Under the pieces are notes generated by a model. The model was not told the origin of the DNA. It did not search any database and was given only the letters and a program-made list of their open reading frames with translations. A stretch of DNA of 64,000 nt from assembly GCF_009936135.1 (NCBI RefSeq), contig NZ_CP047901.1:152984-216983 (forward strand). The letters run 5' to 3'. A program made the translations under genes and the position numbers. Positions 41,301 through 58,098 of the stretch are shown piece after piece. The first letter of the stretch is position 1; the number at the start of each line of letters is the position of its first letter. This DNA is from Candidatus Chazhemtobacterium aquaticus. Its GTDB lineage: Bacteria; Patescibacteriota; Microgenomatia; UBA1400; Chazhemtobacteraceae.

Positions 41301-41737
41301 TCAACGAAAACGGAGGGCTAACCAGCATTCACAGCGACGGCACCAATGTTAAACACTTCGGATGTGCTCCTTTTGATATCGGTGCCACAATGTACGGACA
41401 TGACATTCCCTCCAAAACTTCCTGTTTTACTGACACCATATCCAACGACTGTCGAGACAATAAAACTGACCTAGAAACCCTTCAAGAATATGGTTACTCC
41501 GCCTCCTATCTTCGCACCTTAAACAACATCCTGAGAGTCTTAGGTGCATGCTCCGCAGACCAAGTCAATCAACAACAGCTTTGCGTTCCCATCTGGGTTA
41601 GTCCTTCCCAGGCCCAATCCATCTCCAACAGTCTTCTACCCATTCTCACCTCTCAACGTAGTCTCTGGTTCCGCTACTACCAGGGGTATCTTGAAGCCAT
41701 GGCCACCGACAATCAGTGTTCACTCTACCAACCATAG
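38387..41737 (+). CDS. large (1116 aa) secreted protein of unknown function, candidate pilus- or T4SS-associated surface/adhesin component
   Basis: Sec signal peptide MRYLLATLSTLLITSLLTNTVFA|QA. No TM or sorting motif after it. Many Cys, Trp and Tyr. Co-oriented and tightly spaced with P10 upstream and the VirB6-like gene downstream. Confidence 0.5.
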   Translation: MRYLLATLSTLLITSLLTNTVFAQANPAGTVGPEIAVPNAGTTVIAAQSYTGVVSVINYIDIDGPVAFNSVPIKNLNVPTILRVDISANTSNEDIVAYANSLNSVVDTEFPNGLKVVVLSVETNNLDWWYGSPGQSNDEASIRQGAREYAEKFILFAQTIRQDLPLAPAPPDLFNGVFNADPWMDEFTRSGTCPYVDYNVSDIFELTPTVGGGAYAWNTVHLYQQEKMCGKDVIHFEGWGINPNNPPPTVKQQVDWFQNTPLPPGIETATTLILPHCPPEYDASLDQTVNGFIDWWYYINGRVFTSDGLEIDPESCTEREKPDCYYDGNLTRPGGTCKSRVPYVHSALEQYAPQCTLTPQGSLSRTSCGIPPTITNLPNDPQEYMDVRLLVNYSQLQLGGLGPDHTAWRSIPIDNLARGYPYNALADKPLSVTEDTPKEAFRTWWRLLSLRQQIEAKAEFFQRFRIQDPPIFDSEFAYSQGGSTQTYTISELENILPDCLRLFPVPNRCGITADSLTPEQTYYRLPETTRAMYDAFLPFDFDNVRGYLALQYKDPTDFLSGENRNRAGVIADNLPYIQALVDILSNKVSGILTALSPQWLNTLRTDTLPTSKDYTIEYEESGEINLTPESQQSFTHMAAAARTNSEYGADWASDLATTCYNPENQDPTLSSPLTYPQKLEAQDPYLPLPGSEYTDVLDQSVLIPTETSIYYGTPTTSGSDITCTYETGNTCSYDINTGSCPPLYITNTTGGIPGQRDPDLPVRSQVGRSIITFANPLMTDISRLISEPYLGMPDTSGTYNWASHMNLSLYHQMLTRDFTPQPQPFTEMFSEYTEDPMYAKQAQYQASKDNDSAVTLSAQAGGTGDQTGLVARKGGQLEIDLCKLRNFWLRPDSLQIGDPEDCQQLDQYISTPNQPYELTTPGSTDSACQVKQYLFENICPGGSCSSYVVDTALSTSCSGKVINPYFAITVALNENGGLTSIHSDGTNVKHFGCAPFDIGATMYGHDIPSKTSCFTDTISNDCRDNKTDLETLQEYGYSASYLRTLNNILRVLGACSADQVNQQQLCVPIWVSPSQAQSISNSLLPILTSQRSLWFRYYQGYLEAMATDNQCSLYQP

Positions 41738-41773: not shown

Positions 41774-43564
41774 ATGCTCAAGAAAATCCTTCTCACTTTC
41801 ACCACTCTCTGCCTGTTTTTTACCTTATCCATTCCCGCTCATGCTCAAACAGACACTAAAGACATCTTAAGAGATTTCTGCGACAGTCGCCAAGGCAATG
41901 TTATCAATCTAGAAACCTGGTATGCCGGCAGATGCGATCCTGAGAGTGAAACATCAACTTTCATGGGTCAAAACCGCGGCTTTGGAGATATTGTCATCCT
42001 CCATCTCTATGAACTGATAAATGGCGAGCAAAACAAGGCAGATGAGGATATGATCAAAGACTTCTTCGAGTCCCTTGTTGACACCATTTCTCAAAACAAC
42101 GGCTTTAATTATCTCACCTACATTCAAGAAAATAATGCCACATTCAAAAACACATCATCGAACTCAGGTATGATATCCCAAATTAGTGGTGGCATTTCCT
42201 ACTTAATCTCAACCCCTCCGGCGAGTACCCAACAATATATCGCCTACATCAATAACAACCTCCAAAGACATAGCCTAACCCAACCAGCATACGCTCAAAA
42301 CGCCACTGGAGAAGGTGGTGGATATGGCTTTGCCCGTCTTGAAGGTTTTCTACCTCTCTGGAAAGCTTTCCGCAACATAGCCTACTTCTTCTTCATTCTC
42401 GCATTCGTCATCTACGGCTTCATGATCATGTTCCGTGTCAAAATTAACCCTCAAACAGCTGCCAATATTCAACTAGCTCTTCCTAAACTAATAGTCACCC
42501 TCATCCTCATCACCTTTTCCTATGCCATAGTCGGTCTACTTATCGACTTTATGTGGGTTGGTTACTATCTTATACTCAACACCTTAGACAGCTTTGGAGT
42601 CTTTGGAGAATCCAAAGGAGTACTTGGGTTCGTCAATGATATATTCCGCGGCCTCGCCTCAGGAGGAGGCGGACTAATCCTCACCTCAATTTTCCAAACA
42701 ATTTTAGCTGTTTACGCCGGCGTGCCTGGAACCTTAGGAGCCCTCACCGGAATATCTGGAAACATATTTACCATTATTATGGCACTCACTACTTTTACCG
42801 GCATAGGGCTAATTCTCATCCTTATCATACTCATTGCCGTCATTATCGCCCTCATTAAGCTATTTGTTAAACTTGTCACTGCTTACGTCACCATCTTTAT
42901 CAACCTAGTTCTTTCTCCCCTCATACTTCTTAGCGGTATTTTTCCCGGCAAGAATGACGTTTTTAGTACTTGGATTACCAACCTTGTTGCTAACATTATT
43001 GTCTTCCCTGTCGCCTCCATCCTTCTTCTTTTCTCCGGATATTTTATGACCCAACCAGTCGCCTCCTTAATCCAGGATACATTAAATGGTTTAGCAAACA
43101 TAATCCCCGGAATAGACGGGAATGTCTCACTGTCCCTAATAGAAAACACCCAAAGAATTCCTAACGTCCCCCTCCTATCACCTCAAACTGAGTGGCTTAG
43201 TAATTTTCCTATAATAGGAAGCGCGGTTGCCGCTGGAGCGTCCGAGTGGTATGCCCTGATAGGCCTCGCTCTTCTCCTCATGTCACCTAAGTTCGTAGAT
43301 ATGGTCATGGATGCCTTCAAAGTCAAACCATTCCCCTACGGTTCTGCTGCCATAGAATCTTTAACCGCAGGCTACAAAGCTGAGGCGGGCTTAATTGGTA
43401 AAGCTACTGAAGAAGGAGGGGTGTTAGCGAGAAGATTGCCTAGGTTTAGCAGTAAACTTAGAGGTAGGCAGGAGCAAATCGACACAAGCGTCAACATCCT
43501 CTCAGGAGGAAAAGTCAAACCAGCCGGCACTGAAGGAGATCAAACTCCAGTTAGTAGGTCATAA
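41774..43564 (+). CDS. VirB6/TrbL-like polytopic inner-membrane T4SS component with N-terminal signal peptide and ~190-aa extracytoplasmic domain
   Basis: Signal peptide MLKKILLTFTTLCLFFTLSIPAHA|QTD, followed by at least 6-7 hydrophobic helices (e.g. IAYFFFILAFVIYGFMIMF, LIVTLILITFSYAIVGLLIDFMWVGYYLIL, GIGLILILIILIAVIIALIKLFV...). Confidence 0.5.
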   Translation: MLKKILLTFTTLCLFFTLSIPAHAQTDTKDILRDFCDSRQGNVINLETWYAGRCDPESETSTFMGQNRGFGDIVILHLYELINGEQNKADEDMIKDFFESLVDTISQNNGFNYLTYIQENNATFKNTSSNSGMISQISGGISYLISTPPASTQQYIAYINNNLQRHSLTQPAYAQNATGEGGGYGFARLEGFLPLWKAFRNIAYFFFILAFVIYGFMIMFRVKINPQTAANIQLALPKLIVTLILITFSYAIVGLLIDFMWVGYYLILNTLDSFGVFGESKGVLGFVNDIFRGLASGGGGLILTSIFQTILAVYAGVPGTLGALTGISGNIFTIIMALTTFTGIGLILILIILIAVIIALIKLFVKLVTAYVTIFINLVLSPLILLSGIFPGKNDVFSTWITNLVANIIVFPVASILLLFSGYFMTQPVASLIQDTLNGLANIIPGIDGNVSLSLIENTQRIPNVPLLSPQTEWLSNFPIIGSAVAAGASEWYALIGLALLLMSPKFVDMVMDAFKVKPFPYGSAAIESLTAGYKAEAGLIGKATEEGGVLARRLPRFSSKLRGRQEQIDTSVNILSGGKVKPAGTEGDQTPVSRS

Positions 43565-43618: not shown

Positions 43619-46147
43619 CTACCTGCCAGCTGAAGGAACCGCTCTCGAATCAAATTTCCTTTGTCGCTCAAGCTTAGCCTTCTTTCTATCACCCTCATTC
43701 CTACTCGACCCAAAAACCAAAACGGTCTTCCCCCAAACCAATTCTGCGTACCTCCGAAAGTCGCTCATTACTCTCACACTTCGTTCATAAGCCTCCATGT
43801 CCTCCTCGTATTGTTCATTGGACGCATACTCTTCAGGCACTGGTTTCTTACTCAAAGCAAAAAAACCCGAATCAAGCGCTCTGTGAAAAGCCATTCTTAC
43901 GTTACCTGGGTCATTAAACTGATTAGCCTTTTGGTTATACGGACTGTAATACCATAACAAGGATTTTGCATACAACAACTTCACCAAATCAGCCTCTTCA
44001 GGCGTCAACACACCCTGCGCTTTAAGTGCTTCAATTTTAATTTTCCATCCAACCCACATACCTTCAGTAGTTAACTCTTGTTGCTTAACCTCGGGAATCT
44101 TGATCACCATCTCCCATACCCCCTTAGAAGCAACTGCCGCAGTCACCATGTTCTCGTATGGCGATCTATCCATTTCGGACAAGGCTAATCTAGATATCAA
44201 TCTGCCCTCACGGATTAAATTCCATCCATTTTGCCCTGACACAGTCATCAACTCAAACCCATCCTTCATTAACCTAGGAATGTCTCCCCCACCTCTTTCA
44301 TACTTCTCTCCTTCTGCTCCACTCAAGAATCTATCAAGCGCTCCCCAAAACCGACCTGGCCCTGACTCTCTCTCACTCTTCAAAAACTCACCTACCGGTA
44401 ATATACCCTTCTCTAAAAACTTCTGTCTAAAATTTACCGCATTATATAGAGGATGGCCAGGCCACAATCCTGCCTCCGCCTCATGGCTTTGCCAAAAATC
44501 CCAAGCGAGATCCAAAGCGTCGCGAACTCCTGGGCTACCTCCACCAAAGGCTTGAATCATTCTACGCCTCACCTCATTTCTGCTCGCATCAGTCAGCTCC
44601 CCACCTGGAGCATACCCCCCCCTCTCCACCTCAGTATACAACCACTGCAATGCCCTATCCATTAACGCCACTGAAAATCCTCCAGCCTCTTGCATCCTAC
44701 CCAAAACCACATAATCGGGCACCCTCAAACCCACCTGATCCCACTCTGGTTTTTTCATCAACTCCTGCCAATTCTCCACCCATGTCGAGTAATCCCCACC
44801 TTTTCTCGCCACCATGCCATTATGCAGCCTTACTCGCATCCCAATCTCCGCTTCCAACACCTCTCTGTACGCCCCCATCACCTCGGGAACACGATATCTA
44901 GCAAAACCTAAATCAATTACCCCAATTCCTGACATCAGCTCACTTGGGTCTACAAAATCCATTGAGTTAGACAATCTCTGTCTTACCAACCTTCTAACCT
45001 CAACAAACAATTCCTCACGCGATGCAGGCAACTCAACCACACCAGAGTCACTCTCCACTGAACCACTATCTCTGCCAACCGCACTTCTGGCTCTAACCTC
45101 ATCTCTTCTTCCAACATACTCCTCATATCTCCCTGATCTTCTTATCTCTCTCATCACATTCCTTCTCACACTTCGATTCATATATCCTCTATCCCTATAC
45201 TCAGCCATCCAGTCAATCAACAGACCAACGTCACCATCTTCAGCCAATGCATCCATCGCCGCATAATACTCTCCCTCAAAGTTCTGGATGTCTCTCATAA
45301 TCTCAGGATTATCTCTCACATCCTTTCTTATCTCCGAACAACTACCACACCTTAACCCTCCGTCGTTATGACCTCCACAGCTATCGCAATCAAACGGCGT
45401 TCCCCAATAAGGCTCCTCCATTGGCTCTTCATCATCATCTTCTTTTCTCTCTCCATTACCACCATCAGGGGGTGGAGGCACCCCATCCCCTCTACCACCT
45501 TCCCCATTATTCCTTCTGTTGCCACCCCCTCGTCCACCTCCTTCAGTTTCACCTCCACCTCCACCACCCCCACTATCTCCACTCACCGGATCTAATGACT
45601 GGTTAGGCACAGCAATATTCATTCTAGCTTGCGCAATTTCCTCGTCGGTCATTGGCCTATGTCCTTCTTCACCGTCATCACTACCAGTGTTATCGCTTTC
45701 ACTCTCATTCACACTCTCACTTCGAGGGGGAGTCCACTCCTCCCAACTCTCAGGTACGCTCGCTTTTATCCTCTCCTTTACATCTCCTCTAACTGGAAAA
45801 CCATTCTTGTTAATATTCTCCATCTCTCTCACGAATCCTGCATGCACCTGCGCTCGTAACACCTGTCGTTCCTCAATTTCTTCTGGCGTTGGACCTATTC
45901 TCTGCTCCAATACCCCCAATCTCACCACTCCCTCTCTTTTGCCCAAACCAATCATTGTCCTTAGCTCCATATCACTCGCTTTTCTATCCGGATTAATCAC
46001 ATTGACCGTCTGACCACCCCTCTCCTCAGTCACAAACATACCTTTCAACTCATCCCTCAAAGCATCTCCGGAGTTTTCCAAAACCTGAACCACAGTTTCC
46101 TGTCTTCGTCTTTCTCGTTCCATATCTGACTGAGCCTTCTCACTCAT
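43619..46147 (-). CDS. hypothetical 842-aa protein with Gly-rich low-complexity segment and Cys4 zinc-ribbon-like motif
   Basis: Minus-strand ORF inside the + strand locus. Contains GGGGGGGETEGGGRGGGNRRNNGEGGRGDG and CDSCGGHNDGGLRCGSC. No recognised family. Far longer than the low-complexity + strand ORFs overlapping it. Confidence 0.4.
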   Translation of the reverse strand: MSEKAQSDMERERRRQETVVQVLENSGDALRDELKGMFVTEERGGQTVNVINPDRKASDMELRTMIGLGKREGVVRLGVLEQRIGPTPEEIEERQVLRAQVHAGFVREMENINKNGFPVRGDVKERIKASVPESWEEWTPPRSESVNESESDNTGSDDGEEGHRPMTDEEIAQARMNIAVPNQSLDPVSGDSGGGGGGGETEGGGRGGGNRRNNGEGGRGDGVPPPPDGGNGERKEDDDEEPMEEPYWGTPFDCDSCGGHNDGGLRCGSCSEIRKDVRDNPEIMRDIQNFEGEYYAAMDALAEDGDVGLLIDWMAEYRDRGYMNRSVRRNVMREIRRSGRYEEYVGRRDEVRARSAVGRDSGSVESDSGVVELPASREELFVEVRRLVRQRLSNSMDFVDPSELMSGIGVIDLGFARYRVPEVMGAYREVLEAEIGMRVRLHNGMVARKGGDYSTWVENWQELMKKPEWDQVGLRVPDYVVLGRMQEAGGFSVALMDRALQWLYTEVERGGYAPGGELTDASRNEVRRRMIQAFGGGSPGVRDALDLAWDFWQSHEAEAGLWPGHPLYNAVNFRQKFLEKGILPVGEFLKSERESGPGRFWGALDRFLSGAEGEKYERGGGDIPRLMKDGFELMTVSGQNGWNLIREGRLISRLALSEMDRSPYENMVTAAVASKGVWEMVIKIPEVKQQELTTEGMWVGWKIKIEALKAQGVLTPEEADLVKLLYAKSLLWYYSPYNQKANQFNDPGNVRMAFHRALDSGFFALSKKPVPEEYASNEQYEEDMEAYERSVRVMSDFRRYAELVWGKTVLVFGSSRNEGDRKKAKLERQRKFDSRAVPSAGR

Positions 46148-46207: not shown

Positions 46208-47330
46208 CACCTGGGTGTACAGGTTACACACATATTGGACTTTTCGGGGTTTGGTAATTGATATTGTAACCGATGACTTGTGAAGGGGTTTGATCAGCTA
46301 AAGATTCATGGATTCGGTCGTGGTGATAGAAGGTAAGATACTCTTTGATTCGCTGGTTGATGAGTTTAAGATCTAGCATTTCATCCTGATATTGATCAAG
46401 GCAATCTTCCTGGATCGTTCGGTTGAATCTCTCAACTACTCCGTTGATCTTAGGAGAGTGAGGATAGGTCCAGCAATGCTTAATCTTTTGTTGCTGGCAG
46501 TATTGATCAAAGACTCCTTCAAACTCACTACCATTGTCTGTTTGGACGGTGTGAATTGATACCGGTAGGACACTGGCAATGGTCTTTAATACCTCAAGAG
46601 CGTTCCTGGCATGTTTGGTAGTAAAGGTTTGAGCGTAGACAACCTTTAACTTAACATCAATAGCAGTAATGGTGTAACGCCTAATCCCATCAATAATGGT
46701 TTCAATGGTGTCTAACTCTACATATCCTCCAGTTTCTGGTTTAGGAGCCTTGTTTACTCTCGTTTTCTGTTTCTTTTGAGGCTGCTTTCTCCCCGGATCA
46801 TGGTAACCAAAGGTGGGTTGATCGTAGAAGAGACGATTCCGTTTGATGATCTTGCCAATGGTAGATTCCTTAGGAGCAACAAGACCTAAACTATCGGTAT
46901 ATCGTTTAACAAGAGGGTAGAGTTTGTGTTTACCCAAGCGGTAATGGGTTTTTCTTAACCTACAGATTTCCGCTAGAACCAGAGGATGGGTGTTCATCTG
47001 GCGAAACACTTTAGGGCGAGTAGTCTTGGGAATTAAGGAGGACAATTTACCTCTACTTTCCTTTAACGTTTTCTGCCAAAGAAACAAAGTGCTTCTTTTA
47101 ACCGGAAAAGCAGACAAAGTGGCAGCCAAACCAAACCGATGGTAGTGGGTGATGACTCGCAAGCGATATCGGGCAGTTTCAGAATCAGCAAAGGCTGAAG
47201 TGGAAACAACTTTTTTCATCCAGACATTGTAGCCAGGACGTCTGGGGAGAATGGTTCTAAGTCTGTCTGTTTCGTGACTCATATGGACTTTCCCTAGTCC
47301 AATATGTGTCGTAACTTATGCACTGGGCTA
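46208..47330 (-). mobile_element. IS481-family insertion sequence (IS3 superfamily) with imperfect terminal inverted repeats
   Basis: A single 352-aa transposase ORF at 46224..47282 is flanked by GTTACACACATATTGGAC (46223..46240) and its inverted copy GTCCAATATGTGTCGTAAC (47298..47316). The + strand here is G-rich, opposite to the rest of the window. Confidence 0.6.
46224..47282 (-). CDS. IS481-family DDE transposase (HTH plus rve integrase core)
   Basis: rve core ...TVQTDNGSEFEG...HSPKINGVVERFNRTIQEDCL... (D, D, 35-E spacing). N-terminal HTH. Single uninterrupted ORF of ~350 aa, as expected for IS481. Confidence 0.65.
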   Translation of the reverse strand: MSHETDRLRTILPRRPGYNVWMKKVVSTSAFADSETARYRLRVITHYHRFGLAATLSAFPVKRSTLFLWQKTLKESRGKLSSLIPKTTRPKVFRQMNTHPLVLAEICRLRKTHYRLGKHKLYPLVKRYTDSLGLVAPKESTIGKIIKRNRLFYDQPTFGYHDPGRKQPQKKQKTRVNKAPKPETGGYVELDTIETIIDGIRRYTITAIDVKLKVVYAQTFTTKHARNALEVLKTIASVLPVSIHTVQTDNGSEFEGVFDQYCQQQKIKHCWTYPHSPKINGVVERFNRTIQEDCLDQYQDEMLDLKLINQRIKEYLTFYHHDRIHESLADQTPSQVIGYNINYQTPKSPICV

Positions 47331-47363
47331 TACTAGTTTCATTACCAACCAAGCTTAAGGCAT

Positions 47364-48353
47364 ATGCCCGTCCAACAGCATCCCATCCCCCAAAACGTCA
47401 CCAGCTATCAATTCCGCTTAGTTGGCGACATGACTCTCAAACAATTTCTCCAGCTAGCAGCTGGCATAGTCATTGGTCTAGTTATCTACGCCACCCCCCT
47501 TCCTTCCTTCTTCAAATGGCCTCTCATCTCTATCATTGTTGGCCTTGGTGCTGCCATTGCCTTTGTCCCTGTTCAGGGCCGACCCTTGGATCAATGGATT
47601 GTTGCCTTTATCCGCTCCATCTACGCTCCCACCATCTATGTCTGGCAAAAACCCAACAACCAACAACCATCTCTAAACCAAGCTCCCACCTCCATTACGC
47701 AGGCTCTACAATCCTCTCCCCCCACTAGTCCTTCCCCCACTGCCACTCAACCTCAAACCTCAAAAATCGAGCGCCCTAATTTAGTCCCTCAAATCCACAC
47801 CTTAACCAGAGCTACTCCACCCACTCCCAACCCTACTCCACCACCCCAACCCGAACCCCTCATCCCCACTAGCCAAGATATCAAAAAATCAGCCAAAAAC
47901 GTATTTGCTTCACCACCAAAACCAATTGCTGTCACTCCGCAATCTCATCAAAACACCAATCATCAATCAACTCAATCCTCTTCTAAGCCCGCTCCAACCA
48001 CCTCTACCGCTACTGTTTCCGATACACCAGCTCAACCAGGAACCTCCGCTTCCTTCTCAACCGACCTCCCCATCCCCAGCACCCCTCAAACCCCCAACAC
48101 TATCGTTGGCATGACTCTCTCCCCACAGGGTAAAATCCTGGAATCAGTCATTGTTGAGATCCTTAAAAACGGTCAGACCATCCGCGCCACCAAAAGCAAC
48201 AAGCTCGGCCAGTTTCTCTTTGCCAAACCTCTTGATGACGGAATCTTCCAGATTACTGCCGACAAAGACGGTTTCACTTTTCCCCGCTTCGATCTTAAAC
48301 TAGACGGTCAAATCATTCCCCCAATTAAACTCCAAGCCACAGGTACAAAATAA
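47364..48353 (+). CDS. PrgI/VirB3-like T4SS membrane protein fused to a Pro/Thr-rich linker and a C-terminal CarboxypepD_reg-like beta-sandwich domain
   Basis: N-terminal ~100 aa (SYQFRLVGDMTLKQFLQLAAGIVIGLVIYATPLPSFFKWPLISIIVGLGAAIAFVPVQGRPLDQWIVAFIRSIY) fits the PrgI/VirB3 two-TM pattern and precedes VirB4 as in Gram-positive-type T4SS. The C-terminus ...ILESVIVEILKNGQTIRATKSNKLGQFLFAKPLDDGIFQITADKDGFTF resembles CarbopepD_reg/Cna-B folds. Confidence 0.45.
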   Translation: MPVQQHPIPQNVTSYQFRLVGDMTLKQFLQLAAGIVIGLVIYATPLPSFFKWPLISIIVGLGAAIAFVPVQGRPLDQWIVAFIRSIYAPTIYVWQKPNNQQPSLNQAPTSITQALQSSPPTSPSPTATQPQTSKIERPNLVPQIHTLTRATPPTPNPTPPPQPEPLIPTSQDIKKSAKNVFASPPKPIAVTPQSHQNTNHQSTQSSSKPAPTTSTATVSDTPAQPGTSASFSTDLPIPSTPQTPNTIVGMTLSPQGKILESVIVEILKNGQTIRATKSNKLGQFLFAKPLDDGIFQITADKDGFTFPRFDLKLDGQIIPPIKLQATGTK

Positions 48354-48354
48354 C

Positions 48355-49476
48355 ATGATCGACAAAGCCATCAAAGCTACCACCCAAGAACATCTTGATA
48401 TTTACACCATCAAAGAACACTTTGTTATCTTAAAAGACGGTTCAACTGCTCTAGTTCTTCAAATTTCTGCCATAAACTTTGGTCTTCTCTCTGAGGAAGA
48501 ACAAGATGCTCTCATCTTCTCCTACGCCTCACTCCTAAACTCTCTTTCCTTTCCTATCCAAATCATTGTCCGCTCCGTCAAAAAAGATATCACTTCATAC
48601 TTAGAGCTTCTTGATGATCGTCTCGAACAAACCTCTTCTCAAAAGCTCAAAGAGCAGATCGTCAAATACCGCAGCTTCATCAGGAGTCTTGTTAAAAAGA
48701 ACAAAGTTCTTGAAAAAAAATTCTACGTCGTCATCCCTTACAGCTATCTAAGTGTCAATCAAGTCTCCAACAACCTTAATCCACTCGCTAAACCACCCCA
48801 AAAACCACCCCAAGATGTTGACTTTCTCGTTGCCAAATCCAAACAAGAACTCTATCCTCGTCGCGACCACCTCATTCGTCAATTTGCTCGTTTAGGCCTC
48901 CAGTGTCGCCAACTCACCACTCAAGAGCTAGTTACCCTTTTCTACAAAACCTACAACCCCTCCACTCAAGGCATTGAGCAATATCTCACTCTACCCACTG
49001 ACTATGAAACCCCAGCCGTTCAAACCAAAGTCAGAAATCTGTACACCGAAAAAGACACTCCCACTACCCCTATCGCCCCAACACCAACGGCTCCTACTCC
49101 TTCTCCAACCACCCCCACTCAACCCACGACTCCAACTCCACCCATTCCCCCTATTACTCCACACCAAACTACCACCACCCCTCAAAACCAACCTCATTCA
49201 CCTACTCCTCAACCAGTAACTCCACCCAATCCTTCTCCTATCACACCACCAACTCAACCAACCTTTTCTTCTCCATCACCCTCTCCATTACCATCTCCAT
49301 CGCCCACACCCCCGCCAGCCTCACCAACACAAAACCAAACTCTATCCATGCCCACTCCACCATCTACACCCACTAACCCAAACCCCCAAACCTCTCCACC
49401 TCCCGACCCAGCCGACTCAGTTATCCCTCCCTCCCCTCCGGTCACCTCACCGCCTCCACCTTTTCCTTTCTCGTAA
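48355..49476 (+). CDS. VirB4/TrbE N-terminal domain (CagE_TrbE_VirB-like) followed by a Pro/Thr-rich tail; first half of a split VirB4
   Basis: ...LDIYTIKEHFVILKDGSTALVLQISAINFGLLSEEEQDALIFSYASLLNSLSFPIQIIVRS... (the hallmark L.KDGS region of the VirB4 N-domain), then ~160 aa of PTPS low complexity ending at a TAA. Confidence 0.5.
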   Translation: MIDKAIKATTQEHLDIYTIKEHFVILKDGSTALVLQISAINFGLLSEEEQDALIFSYASLLNSLSFPIQIIVRSVKKDITSYLELLDDRLEQTSSQKLKEQIVKYRSFIRSLVKKNKVLEKKFYVVIPYSYLSVNQVSNNLNPLAKPPQKPPQDVDFLVAKSKQELYPRRDHLIRQFARLGLQCRQLTTQELVTLFYKTYNPSTQGIEQYLTLPTDYETPAVQTKVRNLYTEKDTPTTPIAPTPTAPTPSPTTPTQPTTPTPPIPPITPHQTTTTPQNQPHSPTPQPVTPPNPSPITPPTQPTFSSPSPSPLPSPSPTPPPASPTQNQTLSMPTPPSTPTNPNPQTSPPPDPADSVIPPSPPVTSPPPPFPFS

Positions 49477-49538
49477 CACACTTCCTGCCTTGATATACTT
49501 TAACCACTGTCATCAGTATTTAACTTCTTACCCTACAT

Positions 49539-51437
49539 ATGGCTTTCCTGCCCTTTTTAACCAAAAAAACACCCACCCCTAACTCTGCTCCACCACCACC
49601 CAACCTTGCTACCACACCCAAAGCCAGTCCGCTTACTCCACCACTGTCTCAACTAGACAATCAACACACCTCTCCAAATCAACCTCAAAAACCTGGTGGT
49701 GAAGTCAATATCCAAGATATCATCGCTCCTCCTTCAATTGAGGTCGATTTTTCTCACCTAAAAATTGGCTCAACCTACTTCCGTACCATTTTTATTGCCG
49801 GTTACCCCCGCTATGTCTCTGCCAACTGGCTTTCCCCCCTTATCAATTTCGATCACAGTATCGACGTCTCCATGTTCATCTATCCAGTCGAGGTCAAAGG
49901 CACTCTCGAACAACTCCGTCGTCGTATTGCTGAAATGGAGGCCGAGATATCAGCTGACATCGAACGCGGCCGCATCCCTCAAGCCTCAACCCAAGCCCAA
50001 CTAGAAGATGCCAACTCCCTCCAAGAACAACTCGTCAAAGGTATCGAGCGCTTCTTCCAGTTCTCTCTCTATATCACCATTTCTGCAGACTCCAAAAAAG
50101 AACTAGACACCGTCACCAGCCAAGTCCAAAGCCTTCTCGGATCTTTAATCATAGTCAGTAAAATTGCCTCGTATTCTCAAGTTGAAGCCTTCAAATCCAC
50201 CCTTCCATACTGTAAAGACAAGCTTCTTGTTACCCGCAATATGGACACAACCGCTCTCTCCACTACTTTCCCATTTACCAGCTCCGAACTCACCGACAAT
50301 AAAGGCGTCCTTTTCGGAATCAACGAACACAACGAGTCACTCGTCATTTTTGATCGCTTCTCTATGGAAAACGCCAACATGCTCATTCTCGCCACTTCCG
50401 GGGCCGGCAAATCCTACGCCGTCAAAATCGAAATTATGCGCTCCCTCATGTTTGGCACTCATGTCATCATCATCGATCCAGAAAATGAATATGAAATGCT
50501 TTGTAAGGCCGTCGGCGGTAACTACATTGCTTTTAATGTCAGCAGCAATCATAAAATCAACCCCTTCCAACTAGCCGACCCAGACAACAGCTCTGAAGAC
50601 GAGATGGGTTACAAATATCTCTATCTCAACTCTCTGCTCAAAATCATGCTCGGATCTATGTCGGCCGACGAAGACGCCATTTTAAACCAGGCTCTCGTCC
50701 TAGCGTACCAGCAAAAAGGCATCACCCAAGACCCACTCACTCACACTAAAGAACCTCCCCGCATGGAGGACCTTTACAAGGCCTTAATTGGTATGGAGGA
50801 GCCAGAAGCCATTTCTCTATCTCGCCGTCTTGAAAAATACGTTAAAGGGGCCCTTAAAGGCATCTTCGATCAACAAAGCAATGTCTCTATCGACTCACCC
50901 ATCACTGTCTTTACTCTCCGCGAACTCGCCGACGAAATTCGCCCCATTGTCATGTTCATGATCCTGGACTACATCTGGACCCAAATCCGTAAAGAACTCA
51001 AGCGCCGTCTTCTAGTTGTCGACGAAGCCTGGTATCTCATGCGCCACGAAGACTCTGCCAAAGTCCTTCAGGGTTTGGTCAAGCGCGCTCGCAAATACTA
51101 CCTTGGCGTCTCCATCATTTCCCAAAACGCCGATGACTTTTTAGGCTCTCCCTATGGCAAAGCCATTGTCACCAACTCGGCCATTCAGTTTTTAATGAAA
51201 CAATCGCCTGCCGCCATCGACGAAGTTGCCCAAGTCTTCTATCTCTCCCAAGGAGAACGCTCCCTCCTCCTTTCAGCCAATGTCGGAGAAGGCCTCTTCT
51301 TTGCAGGCCAAAACCATATTGCTCTCAGAGTTGTCGGTTCTCCCGATGAACACGCTCTTGCCACCAGTAAACCTCAAGACATCCTCGCCCGCCAACAGCA
51401 GGCCAAGAAGGAACAATCTCTTTCCTCTGCCCTCTAA
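49539..51437 (+). CDS. virB4: VirB4-like T4SS ATPase (central and C-terminal ATPase domains)
   Basis: Begins with a Pro-rich segment, then ...IAPPSIEVDFSHLKIGSTYFRTIFIAGYPRYVSANWLSPLI.... Walker A LILATSGAGKSYAVK. Walker B-like LLVVDEAWYLM (the DEAW characteristic of VirB4/TraC). Confidence 0.7.
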   Translation: MAFLPFLTKKTPTPNSAPPPPNLATTPKASPLTPPLSQLDNQHTSPNQPQKPGGEVNIQDIIAPPSIEVDFSHLKIGSTYFRTIFIAGYPRYVSANWLSPLINFDHSIDVSMFIYPVEVKGTLEQLRRRIAEMEAEISADIERGRIPQASTQAQLEDANSLQEQLVKGIERFFQFSLYITISADSKKELDTVTSQVQSLLGSLIIVSKIASYSQVEAFKSTLPYCKDKLLVTRNMDTTALSTTFPFTSSELTDNKGVLFGINEHNESLVIFDRFSMENANMLILATSGAGKSYAVKIEIMRSLMFGTHVIIIDPENEYEMLCKAVGGNYIAFNVSSNHKINPFQLADPDNSSEDEMGYKYLYLNSLLKIMLGSMSADEDAILNQALVLAYQQKGITQDPLTHTKEPPRMEDLYKALIGMEEPEAISLSRRLEKYVKGALKGIFDQQSNVSIDSPITVFTLRELADEIRPIVMFMILDYIWTQIRKELKRRLLVVDEAWYLMRHEDSAKVLQGLVKRARKYYLGVSIISQNADDFLGSPYGKAIVTNSAIQFLMKQSPAAIDEVAQVFYLSQGERSLLLSANVGEGLFFAGQNHIALRVVGSPDEHALATSKPQDILARQQQAKKEQSLSSAL

Positions 51438-51482
51438 TACCTCGCTGCTGTAAACTGTAACCATCACCAATCCCGATTATCT

Positions 51483-54104
51483 ATGGAAAGCCATAAAATC
51501 CACGAACTTACCCAAGAACTTCGCCTTTTACGGACTCTTCCTCAAAGTCCAGACGTTCTCGACCAAATCAACTCTATCTACGAGCAACTATCTAGCCTTG
51601 GTATCAATCCACAATCCGTTATCACCAATCTTGAACATGAAGCACTTCTACAATCCCATAGCGGCGCTGATGTCGACCTCCTCGCTCTCCTTACTGGCCA
51701 GCAGAATCTTCTCACTGAAAAACTCAATCTCGACAAAAGCAAGCTTACTGATAAACAGATAGCCATCATCGAACTTTTAGTGGAACGCCGCCGTCGCCAA
51801 ATCTTACGCGACAAATTTCAAGCCAAACTTGATCAGCAAAAACAATTAAGGTCCCAGCTTTCTTCTGCTCTATCAGGCAAACCAGAAACTGACCCCAGCC
51901 GCACTAATACACAAGACGCCACCACTCTGATTGAGCGTAAACAGCTCACCACCAACACCACTCTTTCTTCCGATCAAACAAAGCAAGCTGTTGCCCAACT
52001 TTCTTCCGACTTAGTCACTCTCAGCGCCCTCACACCATCTCTACCCCACGCAACCCCCGACTTCGACGAAGAAATCAGTCCTCAACCACTATCCCCCCTT
52101 GGTATTGCTCTCATCACAGAACTTGCTTTCGCTAAAGTCGCCGGACCATCCTACTCATCACCTAGTACAGAACTAGAAACAATCATTGATCAAATCGTTC
52201 GACCAGCTACTGAAACAGATTATCAAATCACCATTACTAATTCAGACCAAGATCAACTCACCTACGACCACACTGGATACGTAGTTGTTCAAGATCAATC
52301 TCTAACCGAAGCAATCACCCAACCAGCTATCCTGCAAACACTCACCACCCTTTCCATACCACCCGAGCACAACCCACTAGTTGCCGACCTAGCCTCATCA
52401 GCTTATCGAGATGCTCCCGAACAAGATCCTCTCATCACCGATGCTATTCCCAAGCACCAAATAAGTAATACATATGCCACTGTCAGTATTCTCACCAATC
52501 AAACACTCTCACGCCAACTCAATCAAGCCACTGGTATCAAATCCAACCAAGCTGAAACTCTTATCATCTCAGAAATAGGCCAACAACCTGTCAGGTCCTT
52601 CCAAGATTTGTCGAGTATTGGCCACTCTATTCATCCCTCACCCTACGCTGCTGCCGCTGCCGCCGTCTCTACCTCTTTCCCTCAACAAAACACTCTCAGT
52701 CCAGAACTAGCCCGGCTTCTAGGTAGAGGTATCTCCTCAGATCAAATAATTGCCACTGCTCAATCAGCTCTTAATAAACGTGGTGCCAAATTCTCCCCCG
52801 ATCAAAGACGCCTTCTCTCCCAACTTGTAAGCCAGGCTCGTTCTGTCAGTAAACCTTTAGAGACAGATTTGCTCGCCTCAGCCAAACCTCGACTCTTTGG
52901 CGCCAGGGTTCCGCGCTACATCGAACGCTTTAATTCATATCTTAACGGCTCTAGAAACAAATTCCTGTCTGCTTTCTCAGGTAGATATGCTCGTTTTTTC
53001 CAAGCCGCTACCAATCCTATGGGTTTCGCCTCCAGTCAACTTGGAACCTACGCTGGCAAGCGCATCGCCAGCCACCTAGCCGGCAAACTTAGCTCCACCG
53101 CTCTTAAAGAAGGTTTTGGCATCATGGCCAATCAAGGCTTTAAACAGGGTATCAACTTCTTAAGCCAAGAAGCGGCCAAAAAAGTTGGTGCCAAGTTACT
53201 CTCAAACGCCGCCGTTCACGCCCTCGCTCAATCATTAAACGTCATTCCAGGACTAGGTATCATCGTCGACATTGCCCTCACTCTGGCTATGGCTGCTATC
53301 GATAAAATCAAAAACTCTCTTCACCAACTAGCCATCTCTCTCTATGGCAGTAAAATCGACGCTAAAGAAGCTGCTGCCGGAGGAGCCGCCTTTATTGGTG
53401 GAGCGATTGTCTCAGGAATCGCCCTTGTTGGTCTCGGTGCCCAAGCAGCTCTAGCTGCCACCTTTACCGCTGCTGCCTCCGCTTTCGCAACTCTCTTTTT
53501 TGCTGCTGCTGCTGCCATCATTATTTACTTAAGTGCTTTTAACATAGCTCCCATTATTTCCACCATCGCTCAACTAGACTCAGGCCTGGGTACTTCCGGT
53601 TATGGTTCCAATCTCAATGTTGACTACGGCGAATACACTGGCCCAGTCATCCCAGGATGCCATCCAATCTGGCCAACCAATACTGGAGAAATTATTCAAG
53701 GCCCGTATGGATCCTTCTCACACAAAACCATCGAGGCCATCGATGTCGATGCTCAAACCGGCGAACCAGTTTACTCAATCTCAGACGGGGAAGTTATTGC
53801 TGCTGGCTGGGCTATCTCAGAACCTGTTTACGGCAACTGGGTTATCATTCAGTCTACCATTCAAGGTAGAACCTATCGCGTTTTATACGGCCACTTATCA
53901 ACTTGGAATGTAGAAACTGGACAGCAAGTATCTACCGGCGACCCTATTGGAGCTGTAGGTGCTACCAGCTCTGTTGGACTTTATCAAAACTCCCACCTAC
54001 ATCTTGAGTATCGCGGGCTAGTCTATAACGAATGTCCGGCAGCTGGTCAACAAATTCGCAATGGTTGCTATGGCTTTGCATCCTGTGGAAGCATAGCTTG
54101 GTAA
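51483..54104 (+). CDS. T4SS-associated cell-wall hydrolase candidate: N-terminal coiled region, hydrophobic Ala/Gly-rich membrane segment, C-terminal M23 (LytM-type) metallopeptidase domain
   Basis: C-terminal ...GPYGSFSHKTIEAIDVD...YGNWVIIQS...LYGHLS...GDPIGAVGATS...NSHLHLEYR has the M23 H..D and HLHxE motifs. A long hydrophobic stretch sits at ~aa 610-690. Directly downstream of VirB4. Confidence 0.55.
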   Translation: MESHKIHELTQELRLLRTLPQSPDVLDQINSIYEQLSSLGINPQSVITNLEHEALLQSHSGADVDLLALLTGQQNLLTEKLNLDKSKLTDKQIAIIELLVERRRRQILRDKFQAKLDQQKQLRSQLSSALSGKPETDPSRTNTQDATTLIERKQLTTNTTLSSDQTKQAVAQLSSDLVTLSALTPSLPHATPDFDEEISPQPLSPLGIALITELAFAKVAGPSYSSPSTELETIIDQIVRPATETDYQITITNSDQDQLTYDHTGYVVVQDQSLTEAITQPAILQTLTTLSIPPEHNPLVADLASSAYRDAPEQDPLITDAIPKHQISNTYATVSILTNQTLSRQLNQATGIKSNQAETLIISEIGQQPVRSFQDLSSIGHSIHPSPYAAAAAAVSTSFPQQNTLSPELARLLGRGISSDQIIATAQSALNKRGAKFSPDQRRLLSQLVSQARSVSKPLETDLLASAKPRLFGARVPRYIERFNSYLNGSRNKFLSAFSGRYARFFQAATNPMGFASSQLGTYAGKRIASHLAGKLSSTALKEGFGIMANQGFKQGINFLSQEAAKKVGAKLLSNAAVHALAQSLNVIPGLGIIVDIALTLAMAAIDKIKNSLHQLAISLYGSKIDAKEAAAGGAAFIGGAIVSGIALVGLGAQAALAATFTAAASAFATLFFAAAAAIIIYLSAFNIAPIISTIAQLDSGLGTSGYGSNLNVDYGEYTGPVIPGCHPIWPTNTGEIIQGPYGSFSHKTIEAIDVDAQTGEPVYSISDGEVIAAGWAISEPVYGNWVIIQSTIQGRTYRVLYGHLSTWNVETGQQVSTGDPIGAVGATSSVGLYQNSHLHLEYRGLVYNECPAAGQQIRNGCYGFASCGSIAW

Positions 54105-54120: not shown

Positions 54121-55158
54121 ATGAACAACATCACCAGCTCTCTTCACCAAACCATCTTAGTACTTCGTAAGACCAAGTTTGTCATCCTTGCTGGTATAGT
54201 CTTAGTTCTCCTTATTCTCGTTATTATTCAACAACAATCTCGCCAGACACTAACCCAACCACAACCCACAACACCACCACCTTCCCCCAATCTACCCACT
54301 CCACCACCAGACCGAGACTTGAAAATTGTCTGGAATATAACTCAACCCTCGCTTCCCCAAAGTCTTCCTTACTACCAATCAAACCCTGTAACCTTCAACA
54401 CTCAGTATACCGACAACTTCGTCTCTTACCTCGGCTTTGCTCCAAATCATCTTCTTTCTACAAATCCGCACACTCGTCTCTGGGTAAACGATCAATTATC
54501 ACTCAATATAAATCTTCCTTACGGACCACTAACTTTCATCAACAGCTCACTTCCAGACTCAACCTCACCACCATCTCTCGATTTCCTACTTCAATCAGCC
54601 ACACAGCATCTAAACAACATCTTCCCTGCTCTCCAAATCAATCCGGACCTCAAAAATATTAAATATCTAGCCACAGACCCAAATACTACTGCTTTTAAAG
54701 AGACTACTTCAGACCAAGCTGAATATACCTTAATTGGCTTCTATCAAACCATCGAGTCACTTCCAACCATCGCACCGTCAAGTACTACCACCCCCATCAC
54801 CATCGTTCTAAACAATTATGGGCAGATTCAACAACTGGAAGTTATATCAATCATCAATCAACATCAAAAAATATCTGGCAATATATCACTCCTCTCTTTT
54901 GAAGAACTTATGCAAATAGCACCCCAACAAGCTATTAAAATATCCTCCGACAAAATAGACACAGAAACCAATCTAACCAAAGATAAAGATCAAACACTTA
55001 CAGTTAACCAATTAGACCTAGTCTATCTATCCATCTCTAATGACGACATTCTCCAACCTGTTTTCCGTCTCACTGGTACACTTTCCACTTCCACCACATC
55101 CTTCCCGGCTGTCTTTATCGTTCCTGCTTTCGCCAACTCAACAAATCCTCAAAACTAA
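54121..55158 (+). CDS. bitopic membrane protein (N-terminal TM, PT-rich linker, extracytoplasmic domain); possible VirB8-like T4SS component
   Basis: TM FVILAGIVLVLLILVII, then PPPSPNLPTPPP, then a ~270-aa domain. The VirB8-like call rests only on size, topology and position. Confidence 0.3.
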   Translation: MNNITSSLHQTILVLRKTKFVILAGIVLVLLILVIIQQQSRQTLTQPQPTTPPPSPNLPTPPPDRDLKIVWNITQPSLPQSLPYYQSNPVTFNTQYTDNFVSYLGFAPNHLLSTNPHTRLWVNDQLSLNINLPYGPLTFINSSLPDSTSPPSLDFLLQSATQHLNNIFPALQINPDLKNIKYLATDPNTTAFKETTSDQAEYTLIGFYQTIESLPTIAPSSTTTPITIVLNNYGQIQQLEVISIINQHQKISGNISLLSFEELMQIAPQQAIKISSDKIDTETNLTKDKDQTLTVNQLDLVYLSISNDDILQPVFRLTGTLSTSTTSFPAVFIVPAFANSTNPQN

Positions 55159-55160: not shown

Positions 55161-56270
55161 TCAACTCTGTACTCTCACTGGCATAATAATATGGACCCAT
55201 TCTTCACCCTCTTCTCGAAAAACTCCTGGTTTCAATGATCCCTCGCTTTCAATTATTACCTTATTCGCTCTCACCACTCCTAAATACTCAAGCAAATACC
55301 GACTGTTAAATGCCATCTCTACCTCCTCACCCTCAGTCTCAACATCTATACCAGTCTCACTACTTCCCAACTGCGGACTGTTAGCACTCACCTTTAGCTG
55401 ATTATCACCCATCTTCACCTTCACAATATTTGCACTCTCCCTAGCGAATATAGATGCCCTTTTAACCGCCTCTGTTAGCTCTTCCCGACTTACCAACACT
55501 CGAGTCGAATAACTCTCCGGCATTATCTGTTCAAAGGGCGGAAAATCGCCAGCAAGCAACCGGCTCACTATCTCAATCTCACCAATCTTAAAAATTACCT
55601 GTTGTTTATTAATCTCAAACTTAATCAACACTGTTTTAACTTCCTGTTTATCTACTATTCTTACCAACTCCAACAATGCTCTTGCTGGCAAAATCAGCTT
55701 ACTCAAGCCCTCCTTTTCAACCGATAATCTTAAACCTCCAATCCCCAGTCTGTATCCATCAGTCGCCACCAATCGAATTCTATCCTTCTCAAACTTCCAC
55801 AACACTCCCATTAACACCGGACGCGCATCGTCTTTAGCAACAGCCACACCAACTCGCTCTATTTCCTCAACCAACTCTTCTACTCCAATTTCAATATCAC
55901 ATTTACCTGAAAAACTCGGAATCGAAGGATACTCTCCCGAAGCCATACCTGCCACCATAGACCTAATTCCATTAGTCTCTATCACCAAACTATCTTTATC
56001 AACTTCTAAATCAACCGGACCAGCTGGTAATGTCCCCACCAGCTCACTCAACACCCTTCCTGAAACACTCACTTCACCTTCCTCTCTAACCTTTGCCCCT
56101 ACTTTAATCCGAAAACTAATCTCTAAATCAGTACTTAAAATCTCAACTCCACCAGCCGTTGATCTGATCAATACATTTGCCAACACTGGCAATTGAGGTC
56201 TACTCGCCACTCCTCTACCAACCACAGCAAGCGCATTACTTAAGCGTTCATTCAAAATCGTTACTTTCAT
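55161..56270 (-). CDS. dnaN: DNA polymerase III beta sliding clamp DnaN
   Basis: MKVTILNERLSNALAVVGRGVASRPQLPVLANVLI... with the three-domain length typical of DnaN. Located immediately downstream of dnaA. Confidence 0.85.
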   Translation of the reverse strand: MKVTILNERLSNALAVVGRGVASRPQLPVLANVLIRSTAGGVEILSTDLEISFRIKVGAKVREEGEVSVSGRVLSELVGTLPAGPVDLEVDKDSLVIETNGIRSMVAGMASGEYPSIPSFSGKCDIEIGVEELVEEIERVGVAVAKDDARPVLMGVLWKFEKDRIRLVATDGYRLGIGGLRLSVEKEGLSKLILPARALLELVRIVDKQEVKTVLIKFEINKQQVIFKIGEIEIVSRLLAGDFPPFEQIMPESYSTRVLVSREELTEAVKRASIFARESANIVKVKMGDNQLKVSANSPQLGSSETGIDVETEGEEVEMAFNSRYLLEYLGVVRANKVIIESEGSLKPGVFREEGEEWVHIIMPVRVQS

Positions 56271-56591
56271 CTTTCTATTCTTCTTTCTTATTAATTAAAT
56301 TAGTAGCAGTCATAATAGGTACTGTGGATATGTTAATTTCGTGCTAAATATATGCCTCGCAATATTGTTGTTATTTAATAATCATCGGCTAAACCAACCA
56401 TTTCTCTAAATCAACCCTTTGCTCAACGCTCACCTTTTCGGGTTTTTGTCTCCGCATATCAACTAGCATTCTGTGGATAATTTTGCGAAAAACTTATTTT
56501 CCCAAGTGTATAACATTTTTCTATCAACTTGAGTTTCTCACAATCACAGTGTTTTTTCACCAAGTCCATAACAGTTTTCCCCAATCTAGCC
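56271..56591. promoter_or_regulatory. candidate oriC segment (dnaA-dnaN intergenic, AT-rich, DnaA boxes)
   Basis: 321-bp AT-rich spacer (TTATTAATTAAATTAG...) containing TGTGGATAA at 56472..56480 (a perfect reverse-orientation DnaA box) and TGTGGATAT at 56322..56330 (1 mismatch). Confidence 0.45.
56472..56480 (-). promoter_or_regulatory. perfect DnaA box (TTATCCACA on minus strand)
   Basis: The + strand reads TGTGGATAA. Confidence 0.5.
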
Positions 56592-58010: not shown

Positions 58011-58089
58011 CCCCGAATATTCCCAAATAAAAACTTTGATTTCTTTGATCCACCCTCATCAAAACCCAGAATCCGAACATCACATAATC

Positions 58090-58098
58090 TTATCCACA
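58090..58098 (+). promoter_or_regulatory. perfect DnaA box TTATCCACA in the dnaA-rpmH spacer
   Basis: Exact consensus 9-mer, 80 bp upstream of the dnaA start and 109 bp upstream of rpmH. A weaker TGTCCACG lies at 58184..58191. Confidence 0.5.

Follow-up and report, generated by a model that had tools for sequence, protein, structure and literature searches.

Does a stop codon break the virB4 gene of Candidatus Chazhemtobacterium aquaticus, or is VirB4 made from two genes in this organism? The question is raised by positions 48355-51437 of a 64,000-nucleotide stretch of its genome (contig NZ_CP047901.1; hereafter, the window), where two plus-strand open reading frames (ORFs), ORF1 and ORF2, together resemble VirB4, the ATPase of type IV secretion systems (T4SS), and are separated by a stop codon at the end of a long Pro/Thr-rich tract. 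An earlier note on this DNA had proposed either a naturally split VirB4 with disordered tethers or a recent pseudogenising stop within a single gene of ~1000 amino acids (aa), and had also raised the possibility of an assembly error. Our analysis favors the first reading. With a probability of about 0.92, the locus holds the VirB3-VirB4 module of a chromosomal T4SS of Patescibacteria (Microgenomates, Collierbacteria-like), in which the N-terminal domain of VirB4 is encoded by a TrsD-like gene of its own and the middle and ATPase domains by the next gene, the split being ancient and selected. The arrangement is the known, published layout of TrsD plus VirB4, and neither a lesion nor an oddity of this genome.

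Layout of the two reading frames

ORF1 (48355-49476, 373 aa) ends with a TAA at 49474-49476, and ORF2 (49539-51437, 632 aa) starts behind an intergenic spacer of 62 nt (49477-49538). Both lengths agree with the earlier note, which had placed the TAA incorrectly at 49477. Three regions were distinguished in ORF1: a TrsD-like or "TraC-like" core domain (aa 1-215, 48355-48999), the putative counterpart of the VirB4 N-terminal domain; a hypervariable Pro/Thr/Ser-rich tail that is predicted to be disordered (aa 216-350, 49000-49404); and a more conserved C-terminal peptide, DPADSVIPPSPPVTSPPPPFPFS (aa 351-373), which together with the TAA occupies 49405-49476. ORF2 opens with the conserved N-terminal peptide MAFLPFLTKK (49539-49568), continues with a Pro-rich low-complexity linker of 45 aa (aa 11-55, 49569-49703), and then encodes the VirB4 middle and ATPase domains (aa 56-632, 49704-51437). 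The motifs named previously were all located, namely the VirB4 N-domain hallmark FVILKDGSTALVLQ at ORF1 aa 23-36, Walker A GAGKS at ORF2 aa 288-292 (50400-50414), and Walker B DEAW at ORF2 aa 495-498 (51021-51032). The Pro-rich stretch reported at the start of ORF2 was likewise confirmed as the linker behind MAFLPFLTKK.

ORF2 matched NF045971, the model of the CD1110-family VirB4 (MPF-FATA class), scoring 362.5 bits (E 4.5e-108), where the curated cut-off is 325. Pfam families detected in ORF2 were P-loop_TraG, AAA_10, DUF87, and CagE_TrbE_VirB, and the VirB4 C-terminal domain in PDB entry 4ag5 was matched at E 2.6e-45. Both Walker motifs are intact, and to judge from its motifs, ORF2 is an intact VirB4 ATPase. 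The alignment covered positions 185-733 of the 752 in NF045971; positions 1-184, the N-terminal domain, are not found in the same chain, and ORF1 supplies that part. The Pro-rich linker of ORF2 is kept, with variable sequence and length, in the aligned orthologues and in most of 85 loci. The distance from the initial Met to the core was 29-71 aa in the 60 loci with a recognized N-terminal motif, and loci L033, L034, and L044 are essentially devoid of the linker. Compared with the diverged relative L004, the linker of the window differs by one 3-nt in-frame indel.

The core of ORF1 and the N-terminal domain of VirB4

In NCBIfam, ORF1 aa 10-128 matched positions 104-234 of the 894-position VirB4_plasma model (mycoplasma-type VirB4) with an E value of 2.4e-11. 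Weak matches were obtained to VirB4_CagE (positions 18-142 of 792, E 8e-4) and to a further VirB4 model of 752 positions (positions 26-137). Residues 1-215 of ORF1 correspond to the N-terminal part of VirB4 models and to the free-standing TrsD/TraD family. Protein P0001, identical to ORF1, and all 120 homologues listed carry the precomputed annotation PF26593 ("TraC-like"); a Pfam scan of ORF1, at full length and with the core alone, returned no family from a Pfam copy that did not contain PF26593. Using hhalign, the candidate phyla radiation profile was aligned to TrsD of plasmid pSK41 (E 4.6e-5, probability 68%, 178 columns), and the ORF1-family profile was aligned to a 274-aa Pontibacillus protein (E 2.8e-23). 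When an AlphaFold2 model of the ORF1 core (pLDDT 72.9, pTM 0.63) was compared with the PDB by Foldseek, ranks 1-11 were all TrwK/VirB4 of the R388 system, so that the resemblance of the predicted fold appears modest yet specific.

The size of the core agrees with these matches. Residue 213 of the fused 797-aa VirB4 of Clostridium botulinum pCDC3875 corresponds to ORF2 aa 56, and the fused protein therefore has 212 extra N-terminal residues, approximately the length of the conserved ORF1 core (~215 aa). Sequence comparison thus indicates that ORF1 and ORF2 together constitute one VirB4.

Conservation of the split in related loci

The layout of 373 aa, 62 nt, and 632 aa was identical in three assemblies from different samples (ERZ794933, ERZ794928, and ERZ27240673). 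A search with the ORF1 core returned 3830 homologues, the best 120 of which are all 205-385 aa long; among the matches listed, those bearing names come from Candidatus Collierbacteria or from metagenome-assembled genomes (MAGs) of Patescibacteria. In relatives with 56-69% identity, the gene order is kept: PrgI, TraC-like protein, VirB4 (622-636 aa), and a large protein in the hydrolase position. The TrsD-like and virB4 genes overlap by 4 nt in L007 and by 8 nt in L006, and overlaps of these two sizes are frequent among the related loci. A scan of species-representative genomes, covering Collier-, Woese-, Shapiro-, Beckwith-, Chisholm-, Gottesman-, and Amesbacteria as well as Paceibacterota, added 80 further loci, giving 89 in all. 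In every one of these 89, a stop closes the TrsD-like frame ahead of the VirB4 core, and none is fused. An exhaustive profile search over 1.84 billion cluster representatives identified 2549 family members, and 149 of the best 150, which were inspected, are free-standing TrsD-like proteins. The order PrgI, TrsD-like protein, VirB4 also holds in pSK41 and in all related loci with flanks present. Many MAG records of L010-L089 are titled "uncultured Pseudomonadales" or "uncultured Gammaproteobacteria," one "Spirochaetia," and one "Vitreimonas"; these labels look wrong in light of the gene content and of the named Collierbacteria relatives.

We next consider how the genes have changed since divergence from L004. 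The ORF1 core differs from that of L004 by 71 synonymous and 4 non-synonymous codon changes, and the first 10 codons of ORF2 are nucleotide-identical. The stop in L004 has the same position relative to the conserved C-terminal peptide as in the window, and the spacer is of equal length with 87% identity; compared with L009/L010, the spacer is conserved only beside the ATG. No promoter- or terminator-like site was found in the spacer, and a scan of 47000-51600 stayed at background level. The RNA fold of the spacer was not significant (z -1.16). Inspection gave no clear Shine-Dalgarno-like sequence before any plus-strand gene of this G-poor strand, which makes the observation uninformative for virB4. 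In a near-identical ORF1 variant from a single ENA contig (P0002, 378 aa), the frame changes for the last ~45 residues (...TFSFLVTHFLP), and the stop falls within the spacer, 14 nt beyond the TAA of the window; the cause is either misassembly of the C-rich tract or a frameshift that is tolerated.

These comparisons show strong purifying selection on the core domains, as read from codon changes, and two separately conserved genes in the order prgI, trsD-like, virB4, hydrolase gene. They also show a break point that, in the alignments, is shared with trsD/trsE of pSK41 and with a Pontibacillus plasmid. They indicate that the split is ancient and under selection. The natural split with disordered tethers proposed earlier was therefore borne out by separate conservation in every orthologous locus examined and by a tail predicted to be disordered. 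Comparison of orthologues, which the earlier note had called for, resolved the pair into two separately conserved genes, so that the split is no anomaly and instead the ordinary arrangement described in passages of a published survey (PMC12102498).

The Pro/Thr-rich tail of ORF1

ORF1 aa 231-373 (143 aa) consists of 39% Pro, 22% Thr, and 12% Ser. The PT-rich stretch of the earlier note is thus real, but the "PTPSP repeats" said to compose it are not: the sequence is of low complexity, and Tandem Repeats Finder reported a single 12-nt x 3 unit at 49270-49305 and no repeat array. In the model of full-length ORF1, no secondary structure was predicted beyond residue 209, and pLDDT was 35-62 (35-53 in aa 216-350). 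Compared with L004, the whole tail has 32 synonymous and 59 non-synonymous codon differences, of which 25 and 56, respectively, fall in the 129 codons compared within aa 216-350. About half of the codons in the tail center (aa 236-335) are changed, and the only indel is one of 15 nt, in frame. By contrast, only 3 of the 23 codons for the last 23 residues, DPADSVIPPSPPVTSPPPPFPFS, are non-synonymous, versus 56/129 elsewhere in the tail (Fisher p 0.005), and this peptide is retained in proteins P0003-P0005. These results suggest that the tail center drifts near-neutrally in sequence and length, whereas the last ~23 residues are constrained.

The length of the TrsD tail varied between 0 and 266 aa across 84 non-redundant loci, 33 of which have at least 40 aa and 23 at least 100 aa. 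In the best 150 of the 2549 representatives, the domain is N-terminal and the protein is 188-787 aa long (median 344 aa), with at least 300 aa in 103 and at least 500 aa in 30. These lengths indicate that long low-complexity tails are normal for the family.

The Pro/Thr tracts might be functionless by-products of the C-rich strand that are tolerated at gene ends, and a by-product of strand bias was also what the earlier note had suggested. With respect to composition, the suggestion held. The GC skew of the tail is -0.80 and G makes up only 5%, and across loci, residues whose codons begin with G (A, V, G, E, and D) grow scarcer with skew, taken from third positions of the neighboring VirB4 gene (rho 0.62, p 1e-4; kinship ignored). 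The near-neutral center, with 56 of 129 codons non-synonymous, tail lengths down to zero, a tail-less fused lineage (described below), and an open frame that is only weakly unexpected (3.8% of shuffles) would also suit a tail without function. With respect to the existence of the tail, the suggestion failed. In loci L062, L063, and L068, where genomic skew is approximately zero, the tail is 130-266 aa long and contains 19-30% Pro. Tail length did not rise with negative skew (rho +0.36, again with kinship among loci ignored), and we rejected strand bias as the cause of tail length on that ground. Tracts with at least 70% P+T+S+Q occur in only 2 of 61 window ORFs, PrgI (aa 93-244) and TrsD (aa 223-373), and are absent from large plus-strand genes with the same bias. 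Tails in skew-free genomes and the count of 2 in 61 ORFs indicate that strand bias explains the Pro/Thr/Ser make-up of the tail, not its existence. The normality of long tails in the family, the in-frame indels, the constrained last 23 residues, and a C-terminal motif shared by 27 of 90 long-tailed representatives (see below) further argue against a tail devoid of function, and we consider such a tail rather unlikely, without being far-fetched. The tail is a lineage-specific, particularly Pro/Thr-rich version of a common disordered extension, and its composition reflects the extreme strand bias.

Two Gly-rich ORFs lie on the minus strand opposite the tail (48991-49197, 68 aa, and 49254-49481, 75 aa). 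From their composition, they are best explained as the reverse-complement mirror of Pro-rich coding sequence and not as genes.

Peptides at the junction and a re-fused lineage

VirB4 proteins of these loci nearly always start with a hydrophobic-Pro-basic peptide, MAFLPFLTKK in the window and LPLPFLKK or NLFSLGKK elsewhere. An LPFxKK-type motif was found in 60 of 85 loci, versus 2.9 in shuffles. TrsE of pSK41 starts with MIMAFLKKKK, and the fused C. botulinum VirB4 has GLKFSNKK right behind its N-domain, at the equivalent junction. The presence of LPFxKK-like peptides in both proteins suggests that the ancestral break lay just before the peptide and that Patescibacteria gained their disordered inserts to either side of it.

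On the TrsD side, a C-terminus of the pattern P[PL][ILV][APS]E[ILV] (LPPIAEI type, e.g., NLPPIAEIT) was found in 27 of 90 long-tailed representatives, with 0.007 expected in shuffles, and many LPPIAEI-ending TrsD proteins carry an I(N/D)xxL(K/N)(E/Q)-like motif ~15-50 residues earlier. Neither motif was recognizable in the lineage of the window. Tails of 200-500 aa that are rich in Q/N/P/S/T and end in LPPIAEI occur among P0121-P0269 (e.g., P0193, P0196, and P0204) and in L054, L056, L063, and L074. The possibility that LPPIAEI merely encodes the ribosome-binding site of virB4 was set aside, as L063 and L057 carry the motif 44 nt and 560 nt before virB4, respectively.

The one inspected representative that is not free-standing, P0144 (787 aa), is a direct TrsD-VirB4 fusion that has neither the tail nor the LPFxKK peptide. 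It is present in two independent assemblies (L093, 4001-6364; L094, 877-3240), in the order PrgI, fusion, M23 protein, 332-aa protein, dnaN. Its N-terminal part is 51-61% identical to free-standing TrsD proteins, which makes a secondary re-fusion the simplest reading of its sequence. P0144 constitutes "Rosetta stone" evidence suggesting that TrsD and VirB4 work as one unit. We did not find the junction peptide, the LPPIAEI motif, or the re-fused lineage described in the literature searched.

The fusion also bears on whether ORF1 is an accessory T4SS protein of non-VirB4 origin and ORF2 a naturally short VirB4. The absence of ORF1 matches in the Pfam copy scanned (without PF26593) and among PDB sequences would agree with this, as would the statement, in passages of PMC12102498, that TrsD has no assigned function. 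However, three VirB4 models match ORF1 at N-terminal positions, precisely those that ORF2 lacks; the ~215-aa core equals in size the 212 residues that precede the ORF2-equivalent start in the fused clostridial VirB4; and the top Foldseek matches are all VirB4. Together with the existence of a natural fusion, these points make an unrelated origin of ORF1 improbable.

Readings of the stop codon

Programmed recoding, by readthrough or frameshifting, might join the products of ORF1 and ORF2. The spacer is short, and in L012, L070, L073, and L088 the stop is followed directly by an in-frame virB4 ATG. In the window, however, the frame of ORF2 is +2 with respect to that of ORF1, and translation continuing beyond the TAA would meet another stop after 9 codons, so that fusion by simple readthrough is impossible. 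The two genes share a frame in 22 of the 87 loci giving a frame (manual count), approximately the chance expectation, and spacers range from overlap to tens of nucleotides with no conserved sequence or RNA structure. Recoding is thus very unlikely.

A recent nonsense or frameshift mutation that turned a single ~1000-aa virB4 gene into a pseudogene can hardly be credited at all. Two ORFs that jointly cover one VirB4 at a distance of 62 nt would be expected after such an event. Nevertheless, the stop and spacer are shared by three assemblies, the two parts are joined in none of the 89 related loci and in only 1 of the best 150 family representatives, and both parts appear to be under purifying selection (71 synonymous versus 4 non-synonymous changes in the core). 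In addition, the ORF2 start and its N-terminal peptide are conserved, the latter out to pSK41, and the Walker motifs are intact. No more credible is an assembly or sequencing error behind the stop and frame change, since the error-prone nature of C-rich low-complexity sequence and the frameshifted C-terminal end of the single-contig P0002 are outweighed by the same stop and spacer in three independent assemblies and by the equal spacer length and stop position in the diverged L004.

A working model and its strength

In the arrangement that we favor, a VirB4 divided between a TrsD-like gene and a following virB4 gene, the two genes would be co-transcribed. TrsD would act in trans, beside PrgI, as the anchoring and oligomerization domain, by analogy with the VirB4 N-domain in fused systems. 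Its link to the ATPase would be non-covalent, with the conserved LPFxKK-type peptide that opens the ATPase as a plausible contact. The ORF1 tail (143-158 aa) and the 45-aa ORF2 linker would be disordered extensions flanking the ancestral junction and would serve as flexible spacers whose sequence is free to drift. The constrained peptide at the end of TrsD may be used for docking. The make-up of the tail (P, T, and S; few A, V, G, E, and D) would be set by the extreme G-depletion of the strand.

Several points weigh against this reading or restrict it. The score of ORF1 against the NCBIfam TrsD/TraD model NF041427 was 33.1 bits (E 4.7e-8), far below the curated cut-off of 200. The ORF1-family profile had no match at E <= 1 among PDB sequences, and when the ORF1 profile was compared by hhalign with a single fused VirB4 from a clostridium, the E value of 0.62 was not significant; the motif sat at the expected position in that alignment, which we do not count as evidence. 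The best Foldseek match is weak (E 3.5e-3, probability 1.0, TM 0.41, without residue ranges). The LPFxKK and C-terminal motif patterns were written after seeing the sequences. As the fused lineage has neither tail nor peptide, neither is indispensable to a working VirB4. We infer the docking function of the peptide that opens VirB4, as well as whatever function the tail may have.

A broader proposal is tentative, and we would sooner expect it to fail than to hold. Patescibacteria TrsD may be a tethering adaptor with a folded domain on the PrgI/VirB3 side, a disordered spacer whose length could be tuned from 0 to ~500 aa, and a short terminal docking motif (LPPIAEI type; DPADSVIPP...PFPFS here), and the ATPase may present a matching LPFxKK peptide on its own linker, so that peptides, and not a covalent link, would assemble or regulate an essential T4SS. 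We did not find this idea described in the literature searched. If TrsD and the short VirB4 form one VirB4, TrsD gains a concrete working role and the pair a testable interface. Three observations would support that role: Gram-positive plasmids break at the same point, a rare natural re-fusion exists, and conserved peptides border the junction. Genome annotators should not mark the TrsD-like/VirB4 pair as a broken gene; in this window, the split is ordinary and leaves nothing unexpected.

The surrounding locus

The gene directly upstream of the TrsD-like gene (47364-48353, plus strand) encodes a PrgI/VirB3-like membrane protein of 329 aa (PF12666 PrgI, E 1.6e-8, aa 7-89), and its position is conserved in related loci. 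Downstream of virB4, an 873-aa protein (51483-54104, plus strand) has a C-terminal M23 peptidase domain (Pfam Peptidase_M23, E 9.9e-21) and stands in the position of the CHAP-domain cell-wall hydrolase of pSK41; a gene in this position is conserved in related loci and on the Pontibacillus plasmid. Upstream of the T4SS core genes, nine consecutive plus-strand ORFs (33771-38322, 112-383 aa) form a tandem array of divergent VirB2-like T4SS pilins (Pfam PF18895). The replication genes dnaN (55161-56270, minus strand) and dnaA (56592-58010, minus strand) follow, and rnpA (58374-58718) and yidC (58963-59706) lie beyond them. These surroundings fit the published chromosomal T4SS of Patescibacteria near replication genes. 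No relaxase or VirD4 family was matched by Pfam among the large ORFs scanned between 33.7 and 55.2 kb, several of which match no Pfam family at all (38387-41737, 41774-43564, 43619-46147, and 54121-55158).

PrgI is 329 aa long here and 273-337 aa in orthologues of relatives, compared with 132-135 aa in C. botulinum pCDC3875 and pSK41. Its PTSQ-rich tract (aa 93-244) is followed by ~85 residues that do not look like low complexity and have no Pfam match. An rve-type integrase (transposase) gene of 352 aa (46224-47282, minus strand) lies between prgI and a divergent gene for an 842-aa protein. L001 and L004, whose gene order otherwise agrees, have no such gene. With a skew of -0.12 on its coding strand, the integrase gene is unlike neighboring minus-strand genes, and it looks like a recent insertion sequence. 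The 842-aa ORF (43619-46147, minus strand), divergent from prgI, is Gly/Glu/Arg-rich, a composition that mirrors the G-rich bottom strand, and is found in the same place in L001 (868 aa), L004 (820 aa), L005 (842 aa), and L006 (872 aa).

C predominates over G on the top strand of the entire window (1-64000), where each 2-kb bin has a GC skew between -0.10 and -0.64. The bias is a property of the strand and independent of coding direction: third-position skew is -0.45 to -0.74 in plus-strand genes and +0.53 to +0.82, on their own strand, in minus-strand genes (dnaN, dnaA, and 43619-46147). A cluster of DnaA boxes surrounds dnaA (56323-58098), and rnpA and yidC are oriented away from this gene in a layout like that of a typical oriC; despite this, the sign of the skew does not change across 56-64 kb. 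Collierbacteria-like relatives have the same skew, and other Microgenomates and Paceibacterota have almost none.

Comparison with known systems

One comparison is with TrwK/VirB4 of R388 (PDB 7o41, 8rtb, and 8rtd), the sole family recovered by the fold search with the ORF1 core. In cryo-EM work reviewed in PMC12857230, the N-terminal domains of R388 VirB4 connect neighboring protomers, are embedded in the membrane, and touch both VirB3 and VirB8; by analogy, this would be the role of TrsD. Unlike the system of the window, that of R388 belongs to a diderm, its VirB4 is a single 823-aa chain, and the likeness to ORF1 is limited to TM 0.41 with no detectable sequence similarity.

The fused CD1110-family VirB4 of C. 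botulinum pCDC3875 (797 aa), from a monoderm, has a core 30% identical to that of ORF2 over 558 residues (E 7e-75). Its 212 N-terminal residues replace the TrsD core, and GLKFSNKK at the junction resembles LPFxKK. It differs in being one polypeptide, with ~20 residues from N-domain to core and no low-complexity insert.

The staphylococcal plasmids pSK41 and pGO1, the latter the prototype of the MPF-FATA class, have the same gene order, with a small membrane protein, a 227-aa TrsD, a 672-aa VirB4, and a cell-wall hydrolase further downstream. ORF2 aa 60 aligns to TrsE aa 36 (E 3e-48), which places the break at the same point, and the ATPase N-termini resemble each other (MIMAFLKKKK and MAFLPFLTKK). 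As for differences from the window, TrsD of pSK41 is only remotely similar in sequence (hhalign E 4.6e-5; NCBIfam score below cut-off) and lacks a disordered tail, the hydrolase is of the CHAP type, and pSK41 is a conjugative plasmid whose record includes relaxase genes together with a gene for a VirD4-like coupling protein.

A plasmid of Pontibacillus sp. ALD_SL1 (NZ_CP062975, 355093-361354) encodes, in order, a 116-aa protein, a 274-aa TrsD-like protein, a 621-aa VirB4, and a large M23 metalloendopeptidase, with the break at the same point. Among annotated plasmid matches, its VirB4 was the best covered and the most similar to the ORF2 core (36% identity). The differences are that its host belongs to the Bacillota, that its TrsD-like protein is hydrophobic over an N-terminal segment and lacks the PT-rich tail, and that VirB4 starts with MKFDLSKVNEGG... 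and is without an LPFxKK-type peptide.

The closest likeness is to the T4SS clade of Patescibacteria. According to passages of Quinonero-Coronel et al. (Microb Genom 2025, PMC12102498), no T4SS component of Patescibacteria is more abundant than TrsD, of which 2272 homologues were found, 1664 of them adjoining virB4; in other bacteria, TrsD is confined to the pGO1-type subclass of MPF-FATA; the Southlakia epibionticum homologue is listed as essential; and VirB2-like pilin arrays are described. The T4SS was shown to be essential for epibiotic growth of S. epibionticum (Wang et al. 2023, PMC10633639). The words "disordered," "proline," and "low complexity" are absent from the text of PMC12102498, and its passages on this system do not mention a conserved VirB4 N-terminal peptide. 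Compared with the description of this clade, the TrsD-like protein of the window has a PT-rich tail of 143-158 aa and an M23 peptidase takes the hydrolase position. In both, the system is chromosomal and near dnaN/dnaA, the genes for the PrgI/VirB3-like protein, the TrsD-like protein, and VirB4 are adjacent, and a VirB2-like pilin array is present; the ORF1 family corresponds to what that paper, in the passages concerned, counts as TrsD homologues.

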